A stretch of 18,430 nucleotides of DNA from a virus: the UHGV virus genome UHGV-0119144. One strand, given 5' to 3'. Position numbers and translations under genes: made by a program. Below, one piece after another: positions 2,997-17,643 of this stretch (positions are counted from its first letter, which is position 1; each line of letters starts with the position of its first letter). The notes below the pieces were generated by a model. The model did not search any database. It saw only the letters and a program-made list of their open reading frames with translations, and had not been told where the DNA came from.

Positions 2997-3013
2997 ATTG
3001 CTCTAATAATTCA
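2997..3013 (+). promoter_or_regulatory. P1 C1-repressor operator-like site (14/17 to ATTGCTCTAATAAATTT)
   Basis: attgctctaataattca immediately after the stop at 2993-2995. Confidence 0.55.
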
Positions 3014-3045: not shown

Positions 3046-3062
3046 TTTTTTATTAGAGCAAT
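3046..3062 (-). promoter_or_regulatory. P1 C1 operator-like site in inverted orientation (14/17)
   Basis: Reverse complement reads attgctctaataaaaaa; forms an inverted pair with 2997-3013 around the palindrome gtgatgtacactcatcac (3027-3044). Confidence 0.5.
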
Positions 3063-4010: not shown

Positions 4011-4027
4011 ATTGCTCTAATAAATCT
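4011..4027 (+). promoter_or_regulatory. P1 C1 operator-like site (16/17)
   Basis: attgctctaataaatct directly after the stop of the HAD-like gene; best consensus match in the window. Confidence 0.65.
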
Positions 4028-4275: not shown

Positions 4276-7200
4276 CTATATTTTTCCGCCTACGTCTTTA
4301 AACTTCTCAATAAACGAGACGATTTTCTGGAAAACTGCCTGTTTTTTCGTTTTATATTGCGGATTTAACGGACTAAGTTTTGGTAATGTTTCGTTTAATT
4401 CTGTGCCATTTTCGGTGGCATATTTGCGTTTTAAAGATGTGCGAATATAGCGTTTTGCTGCATCTTCATTGAGATTTTCTTCTTTAATCAACGCTTCTGC
4501 TTCACGTAGCTGTTCGTGTTGAGCAAAGGTAAAGAACGCGTCAATGATGCTGGCTTTGTCTGGTAAATCATCCAGGTTCGTTTGCTGAATAAAATCGACC
4601 ACCAGGCCCTCTTTCGCCCGGTTCCCCAGGCTTGAACGAATTAAGCGTTTGACCTCTTCGATCATTTCGCCCTTGCCTTTATTTTGTCTGTTATGTTCGA
4701 AAATCAGTCCAAGGATATAATCCAGGTTTATTTCCTGAGATTTCAGCAAATCGACCTCAAAAACTACGTCATCCCAGTCAGTGGTTGATTTCTCTTTTTT
4801 CTCAGCTTCTTTCTCACGGCGCTGCCAGTCGCGAATATCGTTATAGGCAGAACGATAATCCTGAATCTTGCGATCAGCAGGGAGACGAATTGTTTGCAAT
4901 TCAGCGAACTTTTCATCATCCACATAATGTTCTGCTTTGAATTTTTCTACCGCAACAGGATCGCTAAGATCGATTTGTTGCAGGGCTTTTAGCGTGGCAA
5001 ATTCATCATAGTTTTGCAGGATGTTCTCGGCACGCAGGTATTCGCCAAACAGTTTAACGAAGTCTTTCTTCTCTTTTTCACTTTCAATACTGGCAGGGTC
5101 AGGGAACCGTTGTTCCAGTTCTGAAACTACTGTCATGAAGCCGCGTTTAGCTTCACCTGTAGCAGCATCAGTAAAGCCTTCCATATACTCTGTATAACTC
5201 TTTTCTAACACCACATTTTTGGTGTTTTTGTCACCAAACAGCGTTATGGCATCAATAGTTGAGCGTTCCAGATCCCGGAAAGTGACGATATTACCGAAGG
5301 TTTTAGTTGCATCATAAATACGGTTGGTGCGGGAAAATGCCTGCATCAGGCCGTGAAAACGCAAGTTTTTATCGACGAATAGCGTGTTCAATGTTGGAGC
5401 ATCGAAGCCGGTTAAAAACATCCCCACGACAATTAGCAGATCGATATCCTGATTTTTAACCCGCTGGGCTAAATCACGATAGTAGTTCTGAAAACCGTTA
5501 CTGTCGGTGCTAAAGTTAGTTTTAAAATGGCTGTTATATTCACGAATTGCAGCGTCCAGAAACTCTTTAGCACTGCTGTCCATTGCGCTGGTATCAAAAG
5601 TTTCATCGGAAATTTCACCAATGGCATTTTGTTCTTCATTGGCGGCAAAGGAGAAGATTGTCGCAATACGCAGCGGTTTATAGGTAGCCGATTTATTAGC
5701 GGCTTCTTCTTGTAACCGTTTAAACGTCGCATAATAGGCTTTCGCGGCATCCACGCTGCTCACTGCCAGCATGGCATTAAAGCCTTTGGAGCCTGGGAAG
5801 GTACGGTGGGTTTTCTGGCGGAAGTTGTTCAGGATATATTGCGTGATTTCCTGAATACGCATGGGATGAAGAAACGCCTGCTGATTTTCAGCCGCACTTA
5901 GTTTTTTCTCGTCAGTTTCTGTCTCTAAAGACTTAAACTGTGGCCGCACATCGTTGTAGTCTACCTTGAATTTGAGCACTTTTTCGTCACGAATCGCATC
6001 GGTAATTACATACGAATGCAATTCACGACCAAATACGCTGGCGGTTGTTTCTGAGCCTAAGGCGTTTTCCGGGAAAATAGGGGTGCCGGTAAAACCAAAC
6101 TGATAATAGCGTTTGAATTTCTTCTTCAGGTTTTTCTGCGCTTCTCCAAACTGGCTGCGGTGGCATTCATCAAATATAAACACCACTTGCTGATTATATA
6201 CAGGCAGGTCGCTTTCTGCTTTCATCAGGTTATTGAGTTTCTGAATAGTGGTGACGATAATTTTGTTATCGTCCTTATCCAGATTTCGTTTAAGACCTGC
6301 GGTATTTTCCGAGCCGTTGACGCTGTCTGGCGAAAAACGCTGGTATTCCTTCATGGTCTGGTAATCGAGGTCTTTCCTGTCGACCACGAAGAAGACTTTA
6401 TCAATAAAGTCCAGTTCTGTTGCCAGACGCGCGGCTTTAAAGCTGGTCAGTGTTTTACCAGAACCGGTAGTGTGCCAGATAAAGCCACCGCTTTCGGGGT
6501 TAGACCAGTTTTTCGCTTTATAGGAGCTGTTGATTTTCCATAAGATTCGTTCGGTGGCGGCAATCTGGTACGGTCGCATCACCAGTAGCGTCTGACTACT
6601 GTCAAAAACGCTGTAGTTCACCAGAACATTCAGCAGAGTATGTTTCTGGAAAAAGGTAGCGGTAAAGTCTTTGAGGTCTTTAATCAGCGTGTTGTCTGAT
6701 TTCGCCCAATTCATGGTGAAGTCAAAACTGTTTTTATCGCGCTTTGTCGTGTTGGCAAAATAACGGGTATCGGTGCCGTTAGAAATGACAAACAGTTGCA
6801 GATACTTAAACAGGGAATTTTCGCTGTTAAAACTCTCTTTACTGTAACGATGTATCTGGTTGAAAGCCTCACGAATCGCCACCCCGCGTTTTTTTAGTTC
6901 GATTTGCACCAGCGGTAAACCATTAACCAGGATCGTGACGTCATAACGGTTAGCATGAGAACCCGTCTGTTCAAACTGCTGGATAATCTGCACCTTATTG
7001 CGCATGAGATTCTTTTTATCTATCAAATAGATGTTCTCAAGACGCTCGTCATCAAAAATAAAGTCGCAAATATAGTCGATATGGATTTTACGGGTCTTAT
7101 CCAGAATGCCATCACTCGGGTTGTCCAGATACTGCTCCGTGAAACGCCGCCATTCGCTGTCATTAAACACCACACCATTGAGGTTCTGAAGCTGTTCCCG

Positions 7201-7392
7201 AACGTTGGCCAGCATCGCCGACTGTGATTTTACGGGTATAAATTCATAGCCCTGATTTCGCAGGTCCTGAATCAGTTCCCGTTCCAGGTCCGATTCACTC
7301 TGATAGCTGTCGCCTGTTGGCTCAGCTTTGATGTACTTATCAAGAACGATAAAGTTATTGGATTCAGCAATGGTGTGTGTCTGATGAGTCAT
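4276..7392 (-). CDS. hsdR: Type I restriction enzyme R subunit (HsdR), type IC / EcoR124 family
   Basis: 1038 aa; PD-(D/E)xK nuclease motif ([18 protein letters not shown]), helicase motifs TGSGKT and FDECH; N-terminus [14 protein letters not shown] as in EcoR124-type HsdR. Confidence 0.95.
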
Positions 7393-7513
7393 AGCGCATC
7401 CTTTGTGCCGTCTGGCAAGGGCCGGAAGGGAGTTAAGGGCGACTTCCGGCGTGTAGAAAATAGTCTATATACTGACCGGATGTTAAGGTGGTCCGGTCTG
7501 TAAAAATGCTCAA

Positions 7514-8727
<1,214 letters not shown>

Positions 8728-8731
<4 letters not shown>

Positions 8732-10290
8732 TTCTGCACCTCGCAGCCTTCAATTTCAGCCACAATCGCATCAATATCTTTACGCAACTGGTCGATTTTG
8801 CTGACCGTGGTTTTCAGCTCTGCATTCAACTCAGCGATATTGATAATTTCGCGAGTATCTTTCGCTTCCACATAGCTGCTTACCGACAGGTTATAGTCAT
8901 TAGCGACAACGGCCTCAAACGTGACAGATTTTGCCAGATGAGCAACATCTTCCTTGCTGGAAAATACCTGCATAATCTGTTCGATATGGGCATCAGTCAG
9001 GATGTTGTTATTAGTCTCTTTTTTGAATAGCTCGCTGGCGTCAATAAACTGAACGTTGGTATCGGTTTTATGTTTAGACAGCACCAGAATATTGACGGCA
9101 ATGGTGGTGCCAAAGAACAGATTCGGTGCCAGTGAAATCACGGTTTCGACATAGTTATTGTCGACCAGATACTGACGGATTTTCTGCTCCGCACCGCCAC
9201 GGTAAAAAATACCCGGGAAGCAAACAATCGCAGCACGACCTTTGGCAGAAAGATAGTTCAGCGCATGTAATACAAACGCAAAGTCAGCTTTGGATTTGGG
9301 GGCCAGAACGCCAGCCGGGGCAAAACGTTCATCGTTAATCAGCGTCGGGTCATCGCTGCCAATCCATTTCACCGAATACGGCGGGTTAGAAACGATGGCA
9401 TCAAACGGTTTTTCATCTCTGAAGTGCGGTTCAGTCAGCGTATTGCCCAGCTTGATATCAAACTTGTCGTAGTTGATGTTGTGCAAAAACATGTTCATAC
9501 GCGCCAGGTTATAGGTCGTATGGTTGATTTCCTGACCAAAAAAACCTTCTTCGATGATATGGTCATCAAACTGTTTTTTAGCCTGCAACAACAGCGAACC
9601 GGAGCCTGCTGCCGGGTCGTAGATTTTGTTAACGTGGGTCTGCCCGTGCATAGCCAGTTGTGCAATCAGCTTAGAGACGTGCTGCGGTGTAAAGAACTCG
9701 CCGCCTGACTTACCGGCATTTGCCGCATAGTTAGAGATCAGGAACTCATAGGCATCACCGAACAGGTCAATCTGATGTTCGTTGAAGTCACCAAGTTTTA
9801 ACCCTTCAACCCCTTTCAGAACCGCAGCCAGGCGGGCATTTTTATCTTTAACGGTGTTACCCAGGCGGTTACTGGTGGTATCGAAATCAGCAAACAAACC
9901 TTTGATGTCTGCTTCTGAAGGGTAGCCGTAAGCAGAACTTTCGATAGCAACGAAGATGCTGTTTAAATCTGCGTTCAGTCTGTCATTGGTATTTGCTTTC
10001 GCAGCTACGTTGCAGAAAAGCTGACTTGGGTAGATGAAGTAGCCTTTGGTTTTGATGGCATCGTCTTTAATGTCATCAGTAATTACGCTGTCATCCAGTT
10101 TCGCATAACAGATGCTGTCATCACCGGCTTCAATATAGCTGGAAAAATTTTCGCTGATAAAACGGTAGAAAAGCGCGCCCAGAACGTATTGCTTAAAATC
10201 CCATCCATCGACCGAACCTCTGACATCGTTAGCAATTTGCCAGATTTGACGATGAAGCTCTGCACGTTGTTGAATACTTGTCATTTTCAT
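8728..10290 (-). CDS. hsdM: Type I N6-adenine DNA methyltransferase subunit (HsdM), type IC
   Basis: 520 aa; SAM-binding motif [10 protein letters not shown] and catalytic NPPY. Confidence 0.95.
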
Positions 10291-12324: not shown

Positions 12325-12341
12325 ATTGCTCTAATGTATTG
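12325..12341 (+). promoter_or_regulatory. P1 C1 operator-like site (14/17), with an overlapping partial repeat ATTGCTAT
   Basis: attgctctaatgtattg immediately after the stop at 12321-12323; followed by inverted repeat gattag/ctaatc around TTGACA (12376-12398). Confidence 0.5.
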
Positions 12342-12726: not shown

Positions 12727-13043
12727 TGCTGGAGCAAATCAAAGCCGATCTGCGTGCTCCTAAGACCAATACCGATGATGAGGAAAGGCAAACAGCCGTC
12801 GGTGGCCCTTCTCTTGAAGATCTGGACAAAGTTGCGCGAGAACGGGCCGCCAACCGCCGCGCCGATGCCGCATTGTGGATTGAGCAGCGTAGGGAAGAAA
12901 TCGCCGATATCGTTGATACAGGCGGTTATGGAGATGTTGATACTGAAGGTGTATCAAACGACCCATGGCTGGAACAAGACCTGGACGAAGACGAGGAGGA
13001 AGACGAAGAAGTTACCCGCAAGCTATACGGGGATGATGATTAA
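12672..13043 (+). CDS. Acidic protein translationally coupled to terminase large subunit (possible small-subunit remnant)
   Basis: GTG start; C-terminus [12 protein letters not shown]...DDD; stop overlaps the ATG of the next gene (TAATG). No cluster of TGATCA/G pac hexamers seen in 12300-13100. Confidence 0.35.
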
Positions 13044-14956
13044 TGGCCAGAAGTTGCGTAACGGATCCACGTTGGCGCGAGCTGGTGGCGCTATATCGTT
13101 ATGACTGGATTGCGGCCGCTGATGTTTTGTTCGGCAAAACACCTACCTGGCAGCAGGATCTGATTATTGAGTCTGTGCAGGAACAGGGTAGCAAGACATC
13201 TGTTTCGTCTGGTCACGGTACCGGGAAATCAGACATGACTTCTATCATGATCATGTTGTTCATAATCATGTATCCCGGTGCCCGCGCCATTATCGTTGCG
13301 AACAAAATTCAGCAGGTAATGACCGGTATATTCAAGTACATCAAGATAAACTGGGCTACTGCCACCAGCCGTTTTCCATGGCTTGCTGATTATTTTGTTC
13401 TGACAGAAACCGCTTTCTATGAGGTTACTGGTTGGATTTGCCCCTATATTTCCAGACACCTGTTATCACTTAACCCATTACTGGCTTGCTGCCGTAGATA
13501 TTCCCGTGGCGAGCGATAACCCAGTGCACTATGCGGATGCCATTCGTTATAATGCTCGAACGCCTCTGCAAGGTTCTTTGCTGCCGTTAACCCGTCTGGT
13601 TTGGGCATGACACTGATGTAGTCACGCTTTATCGTTTTCACGAAGCTCTCTGCTATGCCGTTACTCTCCGGACTCCGCACCGCCGTGCTCTTCGGTTCAA
13701 GCCCCAACATCCGGGCAAACTGCCGTGTTTCATTAGCCCGGTAGCATGAACCATTATCCGTCAGCCACTCTACTGGAGACGCCGGAAGCTCGTTGCCGAA
13801 GCGGCGTTCCACCGCTCCCAGCATGACGTCCTGTACTGTTTCACTGTTGAAGCCGCCCGTAGTGACCGCCCAGTGCAGTGCCTCACGGTCACAGCAGTCC
13901 AGCGCGAACGTGACTCGCAGTTTTTCTCCGTTATCACAGCGGAACTCGAACCCGTCAGAGCACCATCGCTGATTACTTTCTTTCACAGCCACTCTGCCTG
14001 TATGTGCCCGTTTCGATGGCGGTACAGCAGGTTTTCGCTCAAGCAACAGCGCATTCTGGCGCATGATCCGGTAAACACGTTTGGCATTGATCGCAGGCAT
14101 ACCATCAAGTTCTGCCTGTCTGCGAAGCAGCGCCCATAACAGTGAGGAATCACCGCTGGTAACGTCAGAATTTATCAAAATGAAGCTGGCGGAGTACGGC
14201 GGGCGTGATAACCCTATGTACATGATTAAGGTACGCGGCCTATTCCCTAAATTACAGGACGGCTTCCTTCTTGGACGTGATGAGGTTGAACGTGCGACGC
14301 GGCGGAAAGTCAAGATTGCCAAAGGATGGGGCTGGCTTGCATGTGTGGACGTTGCTGGTGGTACAGGACGGGATAAGTCCTTTATCAATATCATGATGGT
14401 GTCCGGCCAGCGAAATAAACGCCGTGTAATCAACTATCGAATGCTGGAATACACAGACGTTACAGAAACGCAGCTTGCCGCCAAAATTTTCGCAGAATGT
14501 AATCCTGAGCGATTCCCCAATATCACCATAGCGATAGACGGCGATGGCCTGGGTAAAGCAACGGCGGATCTGATGTACGAGTATTATGGTATTACCGTAC
14601 AGCGTATACGCTGGGGTAAAAAGATGCATAGCCGTGAAGATAAGAGCCTGTACTTTGATAAACGTGCTTATGCCAACGTTCAAGCCGCAGAGGCCGTAAA
14701 ATCTGGTCGTATGAGACTGGATAAGGGTAATGAAACTATTGAGGAAGCGTCGAAAATCCCTGTAGGGATTAACTCCGCAGGTCAATGGAAGGTGATGAGT
14801 AAGGAGGATATGAAGAAAAAACTCAACCTGCACTCACCAGACCATTGGGATACATATTGTTTCGCTATGCTGGCGGATTATGTTCCCCAGGACGAAGTGC
14901 TTAGCGTCGAAGACGAAGCGCAGGTTGATGAAGCTCTGGCATGGCTTAATGAATAA
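13043..14956 (+). pseudogene. Terminase large subunit (PacB-like) interrupted by an IS2 fragment
   Basis: N-terminal 130 codons (13043-13432) carry a deviant Walker A (SSGHGTGKS); C-terminal part (about 14139-14956) is terminase-like. The two parts are separated by 706 bp of IS2 and are not joinable in frame. Confidence 0.55.
13433..14138 (-). mobile_element. insD: IS2 (IS3 family) 3' fragment: right terminal region plus C-terminal ~230 codons of insD
   Basis: Minus-strand translation 13444-14136 matches IS2 InsD from [28 protein letters not shown] to NRCLEI; IS2 terminus TGGATTTGCCCCTATATTTCCAGACACCTG at 13433. insC and the left end are absent. Confidence 0.88.
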
Positions 14957-14959
14957 ACA

Positions 14960-14976
14960 CTTGCTCTAATAAATTG
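14960..14976 (+). promoter_or_regulatory. P1 C1 operator-like site (15/17), Op51-like position upstream of immI
   Basis: cttgctctaataaattg, 4 nt after the terminase stop. Confidence 0.55.
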
Positions 14977-15107
14977 TGTTTTTTGACTGCCGATGTTACA
15001 TTGAACCTGACCTCTTGCGCCTTGAGGCATTTTCGGTTTATGCTTATCAGGCACCTCATTAAAACGGGTGCCGGGATTGAGACCCCGGATAATGTCAAAG
15101 GCGACAC

Positions 15108-15130
15108 AGACGCCGAAAGCGTCTTTTTTT
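15108..15130 (+). terminator. Rho-independent terminator / attenuator inside the immI leader
   Basis: Stem agacgc / gcgtct with loop cgaaa, followed by a T7 run. Confidence 0.6.
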
Positions 15131-15315
15131 GTGTCATGCCATCGCACAGCCATACGTAGCGTTTAGCTCCGAAATCAATGGTAGTGCTGGCTGGGCTGCC
15201 GAAAGGCAGGCCGGTTCCCTTTGACGCCGGTAGTCTCAACCCAGTCAGTGCTACCGCCATTGAGATTGAGACCTCACGCGGTAGCTCCTTAACTTAGTCA
15301 AAGGAGGCTGCCATT

Positions 15316-15537
15316 ATGGCTACTGTCCCTACCCCAATTCATCCTGAATTTATCTGGCGCTTTTACTCCTGCCAAAAACGTCACTATCACTTCGTTATTG
15401 CACCGACAGAAGATGAGGCCCATTCTCAGCTTCCTGACGCTCCCTGCATTTTCTCTGCCCGCTTTTCAACCGATTTGCGCAATTCTCTCAGTTACTGGTG
15501 CCTCCCTGTTAACGCTTCTGCTCAGGAGGGACTATGA
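15316..15537 (+). CDS. Icd-like small protein (73 aa), translationally coupled to ant
   Basis: AAGGAGG RBS; stop overlaps the ant start (ATGA); size and position match P1 icd. Sequence identity not confirmed from memory. Confidence 0.45.
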   Translation: MATVPTPIHPEFIWRFYSCQKRHYHFVIAPTEDEAHSQLPDAPCIFSARFSTDLRNSLSYWCLPVNASAQEGL

Positions 15538-16648
15538 GAACGTCATTAGTTACCCGTGAAGAGATGATCGAGGCAATTGAACAGCACACTGCCTGTATCA
15601 GTACTAGGGATATACCGGGCGTTATTGCCAACTACTTCATGATCACCAAACAACTTTACCGGAGAAAGGACAAGAACGCAGTTCACCGCATCCTGCTGTC
15701 TGATATCCGCGAATACCTGCTCGAACAGGGGCATCTGAATTACGCAACCGTCGCAGCCGAAGCACGCAAGGAGGCACACAGAATGAAAGCTACTAACGTT
15801 AAATCAGAAAAAGTTCATGCACCTTCAGTTCAGGAATCAGAGCTGGTGGTTGTTCAAAATCAGTCGGATGAAATTCCCGTTCTGGAGTGGCAGGGAGTGC
15901 GTGTCGTAACAACCGAAACTCTTGCTAAGGGGTATGGTACAGAAGCGATTCGCATTCGCCAGAATCATCATGAGAACAAAGTACGCTTTGTTGAAGCGAA
16001 GCACTTTTTCAAGGTTATTGGCGATGAGCTGAAAAATTTGCGGGTAGCTTTAAACTACTCACAAAATCCAGTCTCCCCCAAAGCGCGCTCTCTCATCCTC
16101 TGGACAGAACGAGGAGCTGCCCGTCACGCTAAAATGCTCGAAACCGATCAGGCATGGGCATTCTTTGAAAAACTGGAAGACAGCTACTTCCGACAAAAAG
16201 AACAGCAACCGGTCGCAATCCCCCAGACGCTTCCAGAAGCTCTGCGCCTGGCTGCCGAGTTAGCTGAACAAAAGCAACTTCTGGAACAGAAAGCCCACCA
16301 GCTAAATCAGCAGCTGGTGGCTGCCGCTTCTAAAGTCGATTTTGCCGACCGGGTATCAGTAGCTAAAGGGATCCTGATTGGGAATTTTGCAAAGGTCGTT
16401 GGACTTAAACAAAATGCGCTGTTTGCCTAGTTACGGGAGAACGGCATTCTGATAGCGTCCGGAGGCCGTAAAAATGTACCGTTCCAGCAGTACATCAACG
16501 CGGGTATTTCACGGTGAAAGAAGTGGTGCTGGATGATGAAGATGGCTACCAGATACGGTTGACGCCTCAATTAACGGGTAAAGGCCAGCAGTGGTTGACG
16601 CGTAAACTGCTCGATGCTGGCTTGTTAAAACCGGTGGCGGCTGAATAA
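15534..16648 (+). pseudogene. ant: Antirepressor (AntA/Bro-N-like core plus KilAC-type C-terminus) with nonsense and frameshift lesions
   Basis: Open to TAG at 16428-16430, sitting where KilAC proteins have an aromatic residue (LFA*LRENG). The downstream KilAC-like sequence continues in frame as ILIASGGRKNVPFQQYINAG, then shifts by one frame near 16502 into GYFTVKEVVLDDEDGYQIRLTPQLTGKGQQWLTRKLL. Confidence 0.6.
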
Positions 16649-16655
16649 TGGAAGA

Positions 16656-16686
16656 ATGCCCGGTTGATGCCGGGCATAATTTATTG
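16656..16686. terminator. Hairpin between convergent ant and c1; candidate bidirectional terminator
   Basis: Stem atgcccgg / ccgggcat with loop ttgatg, followed by AATTTATT. Confidence 0.45.
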
Positions 16687-17532
16687 CGCGCTTTCGGGGT
16701 TGTCGTTTACTGGCTGCCCCTTCTTGGTTTTACGGCTGCGCGTAACTGATGCGGCTGACTTAACCTTTTTCTCTTCGCGAGTGATGGCAATTTGTTTTTT
16801 TACATTTTCAATATCTGCCAGGCGATATATTTTTGCTTGCGGCCAGCGGTCGCAGATGATCGGTTCTATGGAGTCATAAAGGCTAAATTTTGCTTTTTCG
16901 AATTCACCGTTGATGATAATTCCATCACGGAGAGTTTCATCGCAGATAAACACGCCACACAGTGGCACATGGTAACTAACTGATTTACCATCATTGTAGT
17001 TAGGGCTACTGGAAATGTAGTGGACGCGCAGCATTGTTTCGCTAAAGCCGTGTACGCGCATACGGAATTTTTCATCCTCCGGGTACTGCTTCATTAGCTC
17101 TTTTGTTGCTTCCAGGTTCTCTATGTATTTCGCACTGTGCTCATTGATCCCCGCGCTTTTTTGGATGCGAATGTCCTTATCAATCAGATGAATAATGCGG
17201 CCAGCGGTCATGTTGACGCTGTTCACAGCTTCTGTCTGATAAGTTGTAACCTTACGCACACCGCGAAGGATGTTAGGCACTGGATATAAAATAGTCTTTG
17301 GGATATTGAGGTCTGGGTACTGTTCCAGTTCCCGCGCCATTAAAGTCCATTTATCAATTTCAGCCTGAATGCTGTCAGTTTCTTTGAACGGTAGAACGAC
17401 AACCGGGCGTACAGGACGACCGTCGCTGGCTGTATCAACGTGTTGGGCGCGTGCAACAGCTTTTTTTAGAAAGAGATCCCTGAAGCTGACGAACTCCTGG
17501 TACAGTTGTTCGCCGTAGACATAATTTATCAT
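16681..17532 (-). CDS. c1: P1 C1 repressor of lysis
   Basis: 283 aa, MINYVYGEQLYQEFVSFRDLFLKKAVARAQHV...; strong RBS GGAGGAGG; TATAAT in the upstream intergenic region. Confidence 0.95.
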   Translation of the reverse strand: MINYVYGEQLYQEFVSFRDLFLKKAVARAQHVDTASDGRPVRPVVVLPFKETDSIQAEIDKWTLMARELEQYPDLNIPKTILYPVPNILRGVRKVTTYQTEAVNSVNMTAGRIIHLIDKDIRIQKSAGINEHSAKYIENLEATKELMKQYPEDEKFRMRVHGFSETMLRVHYISSSPNYNDGKSVSYHVPLCGVFICDETLRDGIIINGEFEKAKFSLYDSIEPIICDRWPQAKIYRLADIENVKKQIAITREEKKVKSAASVTRSRKTKKGQPVNDNPESAQ

Positions 17533-17626: not shown

Positions 17627-17643
17627 AGATTTATTAGTGCATT
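17627..17643 (-). promoter_or_regulatory. C1 operator-like site (14/17) in the coi-c1 intergenic region (Op99-like)
   Basis: Reverse complement aatgcactaataaatct; an adjacent overlapping partial repeat follows. Confidence 0.5.

Follow-up and report, generated by a model that had tools for sequence, protein, structure and literature searches.

The pacB-icd spacer and its features

The stretch of DNA analysed here (hereafter the window) comprises 18,430 nucleotides (nt) of one strand of the viral genome UHGV-0119144, and the locus in question is the 359-nt spacer that separates pacB from an icd-like gene, within the local order pacB, spacer, icd-like gene, ORF6N/KilAC antirepressor gene (ant), c1 and coi. 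A scan of the window with Rfam at gathering thresholds gave exactly two matches, both inside this spacer: a small RNA of the IsrK/c4-a1b1 type and, downstream of it, a C4 antisense RNA. With a probability of roughly 0.85, the spacer serves to control an antirepressor operon of the immI type, with an architecture like that of phage P1. The elements of the spacer and of the two genes that follow it, all on the plus strand, are:

14960-14976: C1 operator-like site CTTGCTCTAATAAATTG, the putative equivalent of Op51/Oc4, with two mismatches to the P1 consensus ATTGCTCTAATAAATTT
14974-15002: candidate P51a-like promoter TTGTGT-17-TACATT, weak, overlapping the operator and positioned as P2c4/P51a of P1
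15015-15044: candidate P51b-like promoter TTGCGC-18-TATGCT, with a predicted start near G15051
15051-15130: IsrK/c4-a1b1-type small RNA, RF01394 (match 15051-15129, model 1-77; 60.2 bits, cut-off 50)
15077-15083: a1 box UUGAGAC, in the loop of IsrK hairpin 2, exact complement of a'
15094-15101: b1 box GUCAAAGG, exact complement of b'
15108-15131: intrinsic terminator, found by a terminator scan as a 6-bp GC-rich stem (15108-15124) followed by a T run, and corresponding to the terminal hairpin of the isrK model
15174-15261: C4 antisense RNA gene, RF01695 (full model 1-87; 75.4 bits, cut-off 45)
15218-15225: b' box CCUUUGAC, in the loop of C4 hairpin P3, pairing with b1 and b2
15233-15239: a' box GUCUCAA, in the single-stranded joint of C4, pairing with a1 and a2
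15250-15285: hairpin GCUACCGC/GCGGUAGC, with a2 in its loop, part of the minimum free energy (MFE) fold of the downstream segment
15266-15272: a2 box UUGAGAC, exact complement of a'
15297-15304: b2 box GUCAAAGG, overlapping the icd Shine-Dalgarno sequence AAGGAGG (15301-15307)
15316-15537: icd-like gene, 73 amino acids (aa), NCBIfam NF033153 phage_ICD_like (46.3 bits, cut-off 25)
15534-16648: ant, encoding an ORF6N + KilAC antirepressor (Pfam ORF6N and ANT matches), a pseudogene

Two RNA genes in the leader

The MFE fold of the C4 gene is the structure of the family (-46.5 kcal/mol, z = -5.26), with a long closing stem (P1), a hairpin P2 capped by a GAAA tetraloop and a hairpin P3 with an open loop, after which comes a single-stranded joint. 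To the score and the fold are added two boxes complementary to sites downstream, one of them at the ribosome-binding site of the regulated gene, so that in all of these respects the sequence is a member of RF01695. The C4-type RNAs of P1 and P4 are stable, depend on RNase P for their processing and repress in trans. From homology to the annotated 77-nt C4 of P1, the mature RNA of the window is proposed to span about 15180-15260, with a predicted length of 81 nt.

The upstream RNA gene consists of two 5' hairpins, the a1 and b1 decoy sites, and a terminator hairpin with its U tail; its fold reaches -24.9 kcal/mol (z = -2.25), and its boundaries, again by homology, are proposed at about 15051-15130. 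The isrK family comprises the same two hairpins as the c4-a1b1 motif described by Weinberg et al. 2010 (RF03163, in the C4 clan) and, at the isrK position, P1 matches c4-a1b1, and Gifsy-1 and P4 match both models (RF03163 scores of 51.0 bits in P1, 48.1 in Gifsy-1 and 44.1 in P4). In the window, the c4-a1b1 match falls in the same register as that of isrK, and a1 and b1 match a' and b', which is the function ascribed to the motif.

The earlier note on this DNA, made from the letters without database searches, had described one structured leader with an internal attenuator and had likened it to the c4 RNA of P1 immI, a likeness that was to be given up if no C4-type model matched. The match exists, 75.4 bits against a cut-off of 45, and the dense structure is borne out by the z-score of C4, by that of the 280-nt leader (z = -5.7), by the two Rfam models above cut-off and by the covariation of the boxes. 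What had been taken for a single structured leader is instead a pair of RNA genes, one of the isrK/a1b1 type and one C4, and the presumed attenuator, which is indeed a terminator both in the scan and as the isrK 3' hairpin, ends the first of these as a separate RNA.

The pairing boxes and their covariation

In the window, all 7 positions of a' are complementary to both a1 and a2, and all 8 of b' to both b1 and b2. The direct repeat gattgagacc (15075-15084 and 15264-15273) and the complementary gtctcaa (15233-15239), both previously noticed and both present in the sequence as described, correspond to a1/a2 and to the a' box, and their proposed role as target and antisense elements of the c4 type agrees with their covariation in related modules; an exact repeat of 10 nt in some 360 nt is by itself only mildly unlikely (about 0.06 expected by chance). 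The second pair, formed by b' with b1 and b2, had been overlooked, even though b2 covers the Shine-Dalgarno sequence of icd, as in P1; eight bases separate the end of this Shine-Dalgarno sequence from the ATG at 15316.

The covariation was studied in a set of 80 viral loci with close Icd homologues, to which P1, D6, RCS47, several plasmids, Gifsy-1, four Stx/lambdoid phages and P4 were added. Sixteen modules, from P1-like plasmids, P1/P7-type elements and Stx phages, could be parsed automatically; the Gifsy-1 C4 fell outside this set and its boxes were read by hand. The 16 parsed modules contain 8 types of a box and 10 types of b box in 16 different combinations, and nevertheless the mean cognate scores are close to complete for a1 (6.94/7), a2 (6.97/7) and b2 (7.97/8), that of b1 being lower (7.25/8) because many modules have 7/8. 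When each C4 was confronted with the flanks of other modules bearing a different box, 0 of 214-228 comparisons were fully complementary; since this control removes the bias of picking the best match, it is the main evidence for the pairing of the boxes. The RCS47/D6 lineage has two a types (GUCUCAA and GUUCCAA) and two b types (CCUUUGAC and CCUUUUGC), all four combinations of which were found, with a1, a2, b1 and b2 switching each time to match a' and b'. Judged from the sequences compared, the a and b boxes reassort independently.

Some elements harbour two icd modules, as observed in five pairs of loci from IMG/VR (L031/L088, L054/L079, L069/L081, L022/L074 and L077/L080), each of them combining one RCS47- or L020-type module with one of the P1/P7 type, or two of the P1/P7 type. 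In all five of these viral contigs, one C4 RNA is distinguished from the other by b' at least, as would be expected if cross-talk were avoided. There are also two relatives that lack an intact C4, L008 (pANT_2, at about 1440-1600) and L067. In pANT_2, unrelated sequence beside a DUF968 gene takes the place of the whole IsrK gene and of the 5' half of C4, just b', a', a2, b2 and icd being kept, and its ant has an internal stop; both relatives are decayed modules.

Other stems of the leader

To evaluate the remaining stems, ten divergent modules were aligned from a' to the start codon and their base pairs were counted. The stem gctaccgc/gcggtagc of the earlier note exists and covaries, with 95% of the alignment cells paired and 4 of its 8 pairs changed on both sides, but it lies at 15250-15257/15278-15285 and not at 15244-15251/15280-15287; it is the stem of the hairpin that presents a2. 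Its 5' strand is at the same time the 3' strand of the closing stem of C4, and the hairpin therefore competes with the C4 fold. Weinberg et al. described the same overlap in other members of the family and read the hairpin as a possible terminator.

The hairpin ctcctt/aaggag, proposed to sequester the Shine-Dalgarno sequence of icd, is likewise found in the sequence (15285-15290/15301-15306), but it is 65% paired, shows no compensatory change in the ten modules and is confined to the RCS47/D6 lineage, that is, to a part of the family; it was rejected as a conserved element for want of comparative support. In the MFE structure of the 280-nt leader, a1 and b1 pair with a' and b' in cis, alongside the a2 hairpin and the Shine-Dalgarno hairpin, a predicted fold that resembles the inactive 'structure A' of Gifsy-1.

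The upstream operator and the candidate promoters

The operator-like site at the start of the spacer is one of six such sites in the window, where 0.11 would be expected by chance. It is located 79 nt upstream of the proposed -10 box of the P51b-like promoter, and the distance from Oc4 to P51b in P1 is 78 nt; an Op51-like operator, as previously suggested, thus occupies the position equivalent to that of P1, and this putative site would place the module under the control of C1, as in the immI operon of the P1 type. The other matches to the operator, with 1-3 mismatches, are at 2997-3013, 3046-3062 (minus strand), 4011-4027, 12325-12341 and 17627-17643 (minus strand); these five probably mark further promoters under the control of C1, such as ones in the vicinity of c1/coi and ahead of the pac operon.

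Regarding the promoters, the spacing between the -10 box of the P51b-like candidate and the GCACC downstream is that of phiP27 (TACACT-GTTCAG-GCACC), and Gifsy-1 has TATATT at the matching -10 position, with a mapped start that fits its published numbering. A scan of the leader for the sigma-70 consensus called no promoter on the plus strand, and therefore what the two proposals are based on is their positional homology with P1, phiP27 and Gifsy-1.

The icd-ant operon and a proposed mechanism

The Icd of the window is 78% identical to that of P1, and the stop codon of icd overlaps the start of ant (ATGA, 15534-15537), which sets ant up for translational coupling to icd. The order of immI, that is, icd followed by a coupled antirepressor gene, is thus present, although ant is a pseudogene: its reading frame ends at an internal stop (16428-16430), it also has a 1-nt deletion relative to the ant of Escherichia phage RCS47, and PGAP labels it 'frameshifted; internal stop' in plasmid A of Escherichia coli H15, whose sequence is 100% identical over 701 bases around the locus.

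The RNA ends, the processing, the repression in trans, the decoy function and the positions of the promoters are carried over from P1, P4 and Gifsy-1, by analogy with which the module would work as follows. Transcription would start near 15051, and a second promoter further upstream would probably be overlapped by the C1 operator. Most transcripts would probably end at the terminator (15108-15131) to give an IsrK-like RNA of about 80 nt carrying a1 and b1, and those reading through it would contain C4, which would probably be excised to a length of about 81 nt. The a' joint and the b' loop of C4 would pair with a2 and b2 on the icd-ant mRNA and, since b2 overlaps the ribosome-binding site of icd, the proposed outcome is that icd would remain untranslated and the coupled ant would be off. 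In turn, a1 and b1, exact mimics of a2 and b2, would act as a decoy for C4, either in cis or as free IsrK-like RNA, and the ratio of IsrK-like RNA to C4 would set the threshold of derepression. With ant a pseudogene, the module of the window can no longer deliver full-length Ant; as far as its sequence indicates, it may keep icd under control and could confer immunity of the C4 type in trans.

Relation to the P1/P7, Gifsy-1 and P4 systems

The curated record of P1 (NC_005856) lists, in this order, Oc4 (Op51), P51a, P51b, a1, b1, c4 (77 nt), a2, b2, icd and ant1/2, and the order of the elements in P1/P7 immI is identical to that of the window. The C4 of P1 has the same fold and scores 68.8 bits, against 75.4 in the window, and in both cases a' occupies 7 nt of the joint, b' 8 nt of the P3 loop, and b2 lies on the icd Shine-Dalgarno sequence. 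However, the P1 boxes (CUGUCAA and CACUAAC) are different from those of the window, and heteroimmunity is therefore predicted. The upstream RNA differs too, since that of the window scores with isrK and has a much stronger terminator, whereas that of P1 scores with c4-a1b1. Moreover, P1-type loci are next to sim, kilA and repL and, unlike them, the C4 locus of the window sits between pacB and c1, with an ORF6N/KilAC antirepressor gene that is a pseudogene. The idea that a1/b1 compete with a2/b2 for C4 was originally proposed by Citron and Schuster, according to the supplement of Weinberg et al.

In Gifsy-1 (L093), the Rfam C4 match (69 bits, 34131-34214, minus strand) lies between isrK and anrP and exactly over 'orf45', which gives isrK-orf45-anrP the composition of the module of the window: an isrK-family RNA with its terminator, a C4-family RNA and an antirepressor-type gene. 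The differences are the absence of icd, so that the open reading frame (ORF) overlapping C4 runs straight into anrP, and the sequences of the boxes. Numbering from the start of the transcript reproduces the published Gifsy-1 positions (A107 and U120/G121, which fall in the two AUGs) and, in this numbering, the mutations G28A and G31A map to a1 (UUGGCGU, nt 26-32), while their compensating partners C162U and C159U map to a' (ACGCCAA, nt 158-164). The combinations G28A/C162U and G31A/C159U, published by Hershko-Shalev et al. 2016 (PMC4825925), are compensatory and validate the pairing of a1 with a' in Gifsy-1. The same study reports that IsrK supplied in trans raised the translation of anrP more than 100-fold and that processing of orf45 yields STnc1160, an RNA some 80 nt long; STnc1160 is probably the mature C4 RNA of Gifsy-1. 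The trans-activation by IsrK together with the processing of STnc1160 is thus direct evidence for the decoy role of a1/b1 in a homologous module, and it is in Gifsy-1 only that the binding of Hfq and the trans-activation of the downstream antirepressor by isrK have been shown (PMC4825925). That paper does not mention c4 or P1, and a 2025 review treats IsrK and c4 as unrelated entries; Rfam and Weinberg et al. 2010, for their part, already relate c4 to the a1b1 motif.

The immunity region of P4 matches both Rfam models as well (C4 with 74.9 bits and isrK with 60.8), and these matches are what the link to P4 rests on. Its immunity determinants (the CI RNA with seqA, seqB and seqC) have the same layout as the window, with a1/b1, a'/b' and an a2 presented in a hairpin, but P4 has neither icd nor ant. 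P4 CI acts mainly through premature transcription termination of the left operon, and not by blocking the ribosome-binding site of icd.

Open reading frames over the RNA genes

The earlier note had also stated that the leader contains no ORF. Mechanically called ORFs do overlap the region, of 61 and 39 aa on the plus strand and of 104 and 91 aa on the minus strand, but none is credible as a gene. The two on the minus strand (104 aa, 14946-15260; 91 aa, 14878-15153) were rejected because both are antisense to the two RNA genes, and the 104-aa ORF has no Pfam or NCBIfam match. The 39-aa ORF (15178-15297) is the one that PGAP calls an 'ash family protein' in the identical stretch of H15 plasmid A, and it matches the Pfam profile PF10554 (Phage_ASH) with 28.3 bits against a cut-off of 26. 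When the leader is read through the stop codon and across the IsrK gene, the match rises to 45 bits (profile 6-86; window 15051-15297), a behaviour that would be expected if the profile modelled translated RNA genes. The ORF over C4 has 39 codons in the window, 14 in P1, where a stop ends it, and 31, 45 or 116 (the last fused into icd) elsewhere, so that a conserved reading frame is lacking despite the passing score of the hidden Markov model; besides, the amino-acid differences follow the pairing boxes of the RNA, and the ATG at 15178 is preceded by no Shine-Dalgarno sequence. What is listed as the 'Ash family protein' of PF10554 and as the 'orf45' of Gifsy-1 appears to be the translated form of the IsrK/a1b1 and C4 RNA genes.

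Similar annotations were observed in other elements. In P4 (L095, 8168-8584, minus strand), an obsolete ORF, the 'cI protein', which overlaps the CI RNA, bears the Ash match, and the epsilon protein of P4 matches PF25738 instead. In Stx phages, coding sequences annotated as 'Rha/Ash' or 'Ant' have an N-terminal extension through isrK and C4, for example those at 551-1210 in phiP27 (L096) and at 377-1399 in Stx1_14040 (L098). In published surveys, PF10554 has been used as a marker of epsilon (PMC8628076) and described as a domain of unknown function (PMC8951638).

The host element and its neighbourhood

Over the whole window, H15 plasmid A aligns with 95% coverage and 98.8% identity, and RCS47, which shares the exact locus between pacB and c1, is 96.9% identical over 14900-15600 and 100% identical over 15040-15320; its ant is intact (371 aa), in contrast to the pseudogene of the window. 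Going by these identities, the host element is a decayed P1-like phage-plasmid of E. coli, of the RCS47 type. The neighbouring genes that bear on its condition are:

13043-14956: pacB (large terminase subunit), split by an IS3-family insertion
13444-14433, minus strand: IS3-family transposase ORF inside pacB
16681-17532, minus strand: c1

In the closest plasmid record pacA is truncated too, which, together with the split pacB, makes DNA packaging by the element impossible. The annotation of H15 plasmid A contains no kilA, no repL and no morphogenesis genes, and a BLAST search of that plasmid with three C4 types gave no second immI/C4 copy. On the other hand, c1, coi and icd are all intact in the window.

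The C4 and isrK RNAs are unannotated at this locus in the records consulted. Venturini et al. 2019 (PMC6906374), the one paper found to describe the insertion, lists its content between pacB and c1 as 'two short hypothetical orfs and ant', with no mention of RNA. Further upstream, the window encodes a type I restriction-modification system (hsdR, hsdS and hsdM, within 4276-10290). Its hsdS encodes 405 aa, while H15 plasmid A, otherwise nearly identical, has a different and shorter hsdS, which suggests, at the level of sequence, that the specificity subunit was swapped or rearranged relative to that plasmid.

Weighing the alternatives

Several observations count against the proposed immI-type control region. 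Both candidate promoters are weak consensus matches that fall below the threshold of the scanner, and the c4-a1b1 model proper, RF03163, scores 22.3 bits (E = 0.0017) against a cut-off of 46.7. The duplex energies of the boxes, computed on the single sequence, are modestly better than those of shuffles (z from -1.4 to -3.4), and the best downstream duplex of the a segment, when scored against shuffled targets, is formed with an alternative site at the Shine-Dalgarno sequence and not with a2; these energies discriminate weakly, and the case is therefore built on covariation and homology. Gifsy-1 lacks icd, and its authors read their data as the translation of orf45 and not as antisense RNA (PMC4825925). 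In that line, the region might encode a small Ash family protein (15178-15297, 39 aa) whose conservation would be protein-coding, as the PGAP annotation, the passing PF10554 score and the detection of a tagged orf45 product in Gifsy-1 (PMC4825925) would have it. This is very improbable, given a frame that is anywhere between 14 and 116 codons long depending on the C4 type, a start codon with no Shine-Dalgarno sequence, amino-acid changes that track the pairing boxes, and a Pfam score that reaches 45 bits only through a stop codon and across the IsrK gene. The CI of P4 is, besides, an established RNA, and so is the c4 of P1 (PMC2864571, citing Citron & Schuster 1990).

Nor is a purely cis-acting leader probable, in which the terminator would serve as an attenuator and the ctcctt/aaggag hairpin would mask the icd Shine-Dalgarno sequence, no RNA acting in trans. 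It can appeal to a terminator that is real, to a hairpin that appears in the MFE structures of both the downstream segment and the full leader, and to the pairing of a1/b1 with a'/b' in cis in the full-length MFE, as in 'structure A' of Gifsy-1 (PMC4825925). Nevertheless, that hairpin, 65% paired and with no compensatory change across modules, is absent from the leaders of the L020 and P1 types, the three-way covariation of the boxes and the tRNA-like fold of C4 would be left unexplained, and, in any case, cis folding and trans action can coexist and are not mutually exclusive. A more serious contender, still rather unlikely, is that the module is a useless relic whose RNA genes, intact in sequence, are conserved through recent descent from an RCS47-like phage. 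The inactivation of ant by a frameshift and an internal stop and the loss of most phage genes from the host plasmid, which also count against a working control region, speak for it, as do the pacB split by an IS3-family element and the closest record, H15 plasmid A, with no kilA, repL, morphogenesis genes or second C4; against it stand boxes, stems and a terminator that are all intact, the 100% identity over 15040-15320 to the functional-looking module of RCS47, and the integrity of c1, coi and icd, in view of which C4 and C1 could still give superinfection immunity.

Implications for the immunity RNA family

The immI-type control region of the window is an ordinary member, so far unannotated, of the P1/P7/P4/Gifsy-1 family of immunity RNAs, and as such it leaves the basic understanding of c4-type control unchanged. 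What it changes is the description of the locus, since an annotation as 'hypothetical/ash family protein' and an unexplained spacer are replaced by two defined regulatory RNA genes and their target sites, with a predicted immunity specificity (a = GUCUCAA, b = CCUUUGAC) for the widespread RCS47-like P1 phage-plasmids, which often bear resistance and other cargo genes. The comparison also connects the systems of P1, P4 and Gifsy-1, in spite of IsrK and c4 having been treated separately in the 2016 and 2025 papers, and it concerns PF10554, a profile that seemingly models translated RNA genes and serves as a protein marker in surveys of satellites and Stx phages.

By a narrow preference, the c4+a1b1 of P1/P7, the CI+seqA/C of P4 and the IsrK+'orf45' of Gifsy-1 can be regarded as one and the same two-RNA device with a two-box address code, PF10554 and 'orf45' being mostly conceptual translations of its RNA genes. 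If that were true, the 'Ash/Rha' domain architectures would be artefacts, and so would the role given to PF10554 in marking P4 epsilon; the device would consist of a terminated decoy RNA and a processed antisense RNA with at least 8 a types and at least 10 b types that reassort freely, a code by which P1-like plasmids, P4-like satellites and Stx/lambdoid prophages would be sorted into immunity classes.

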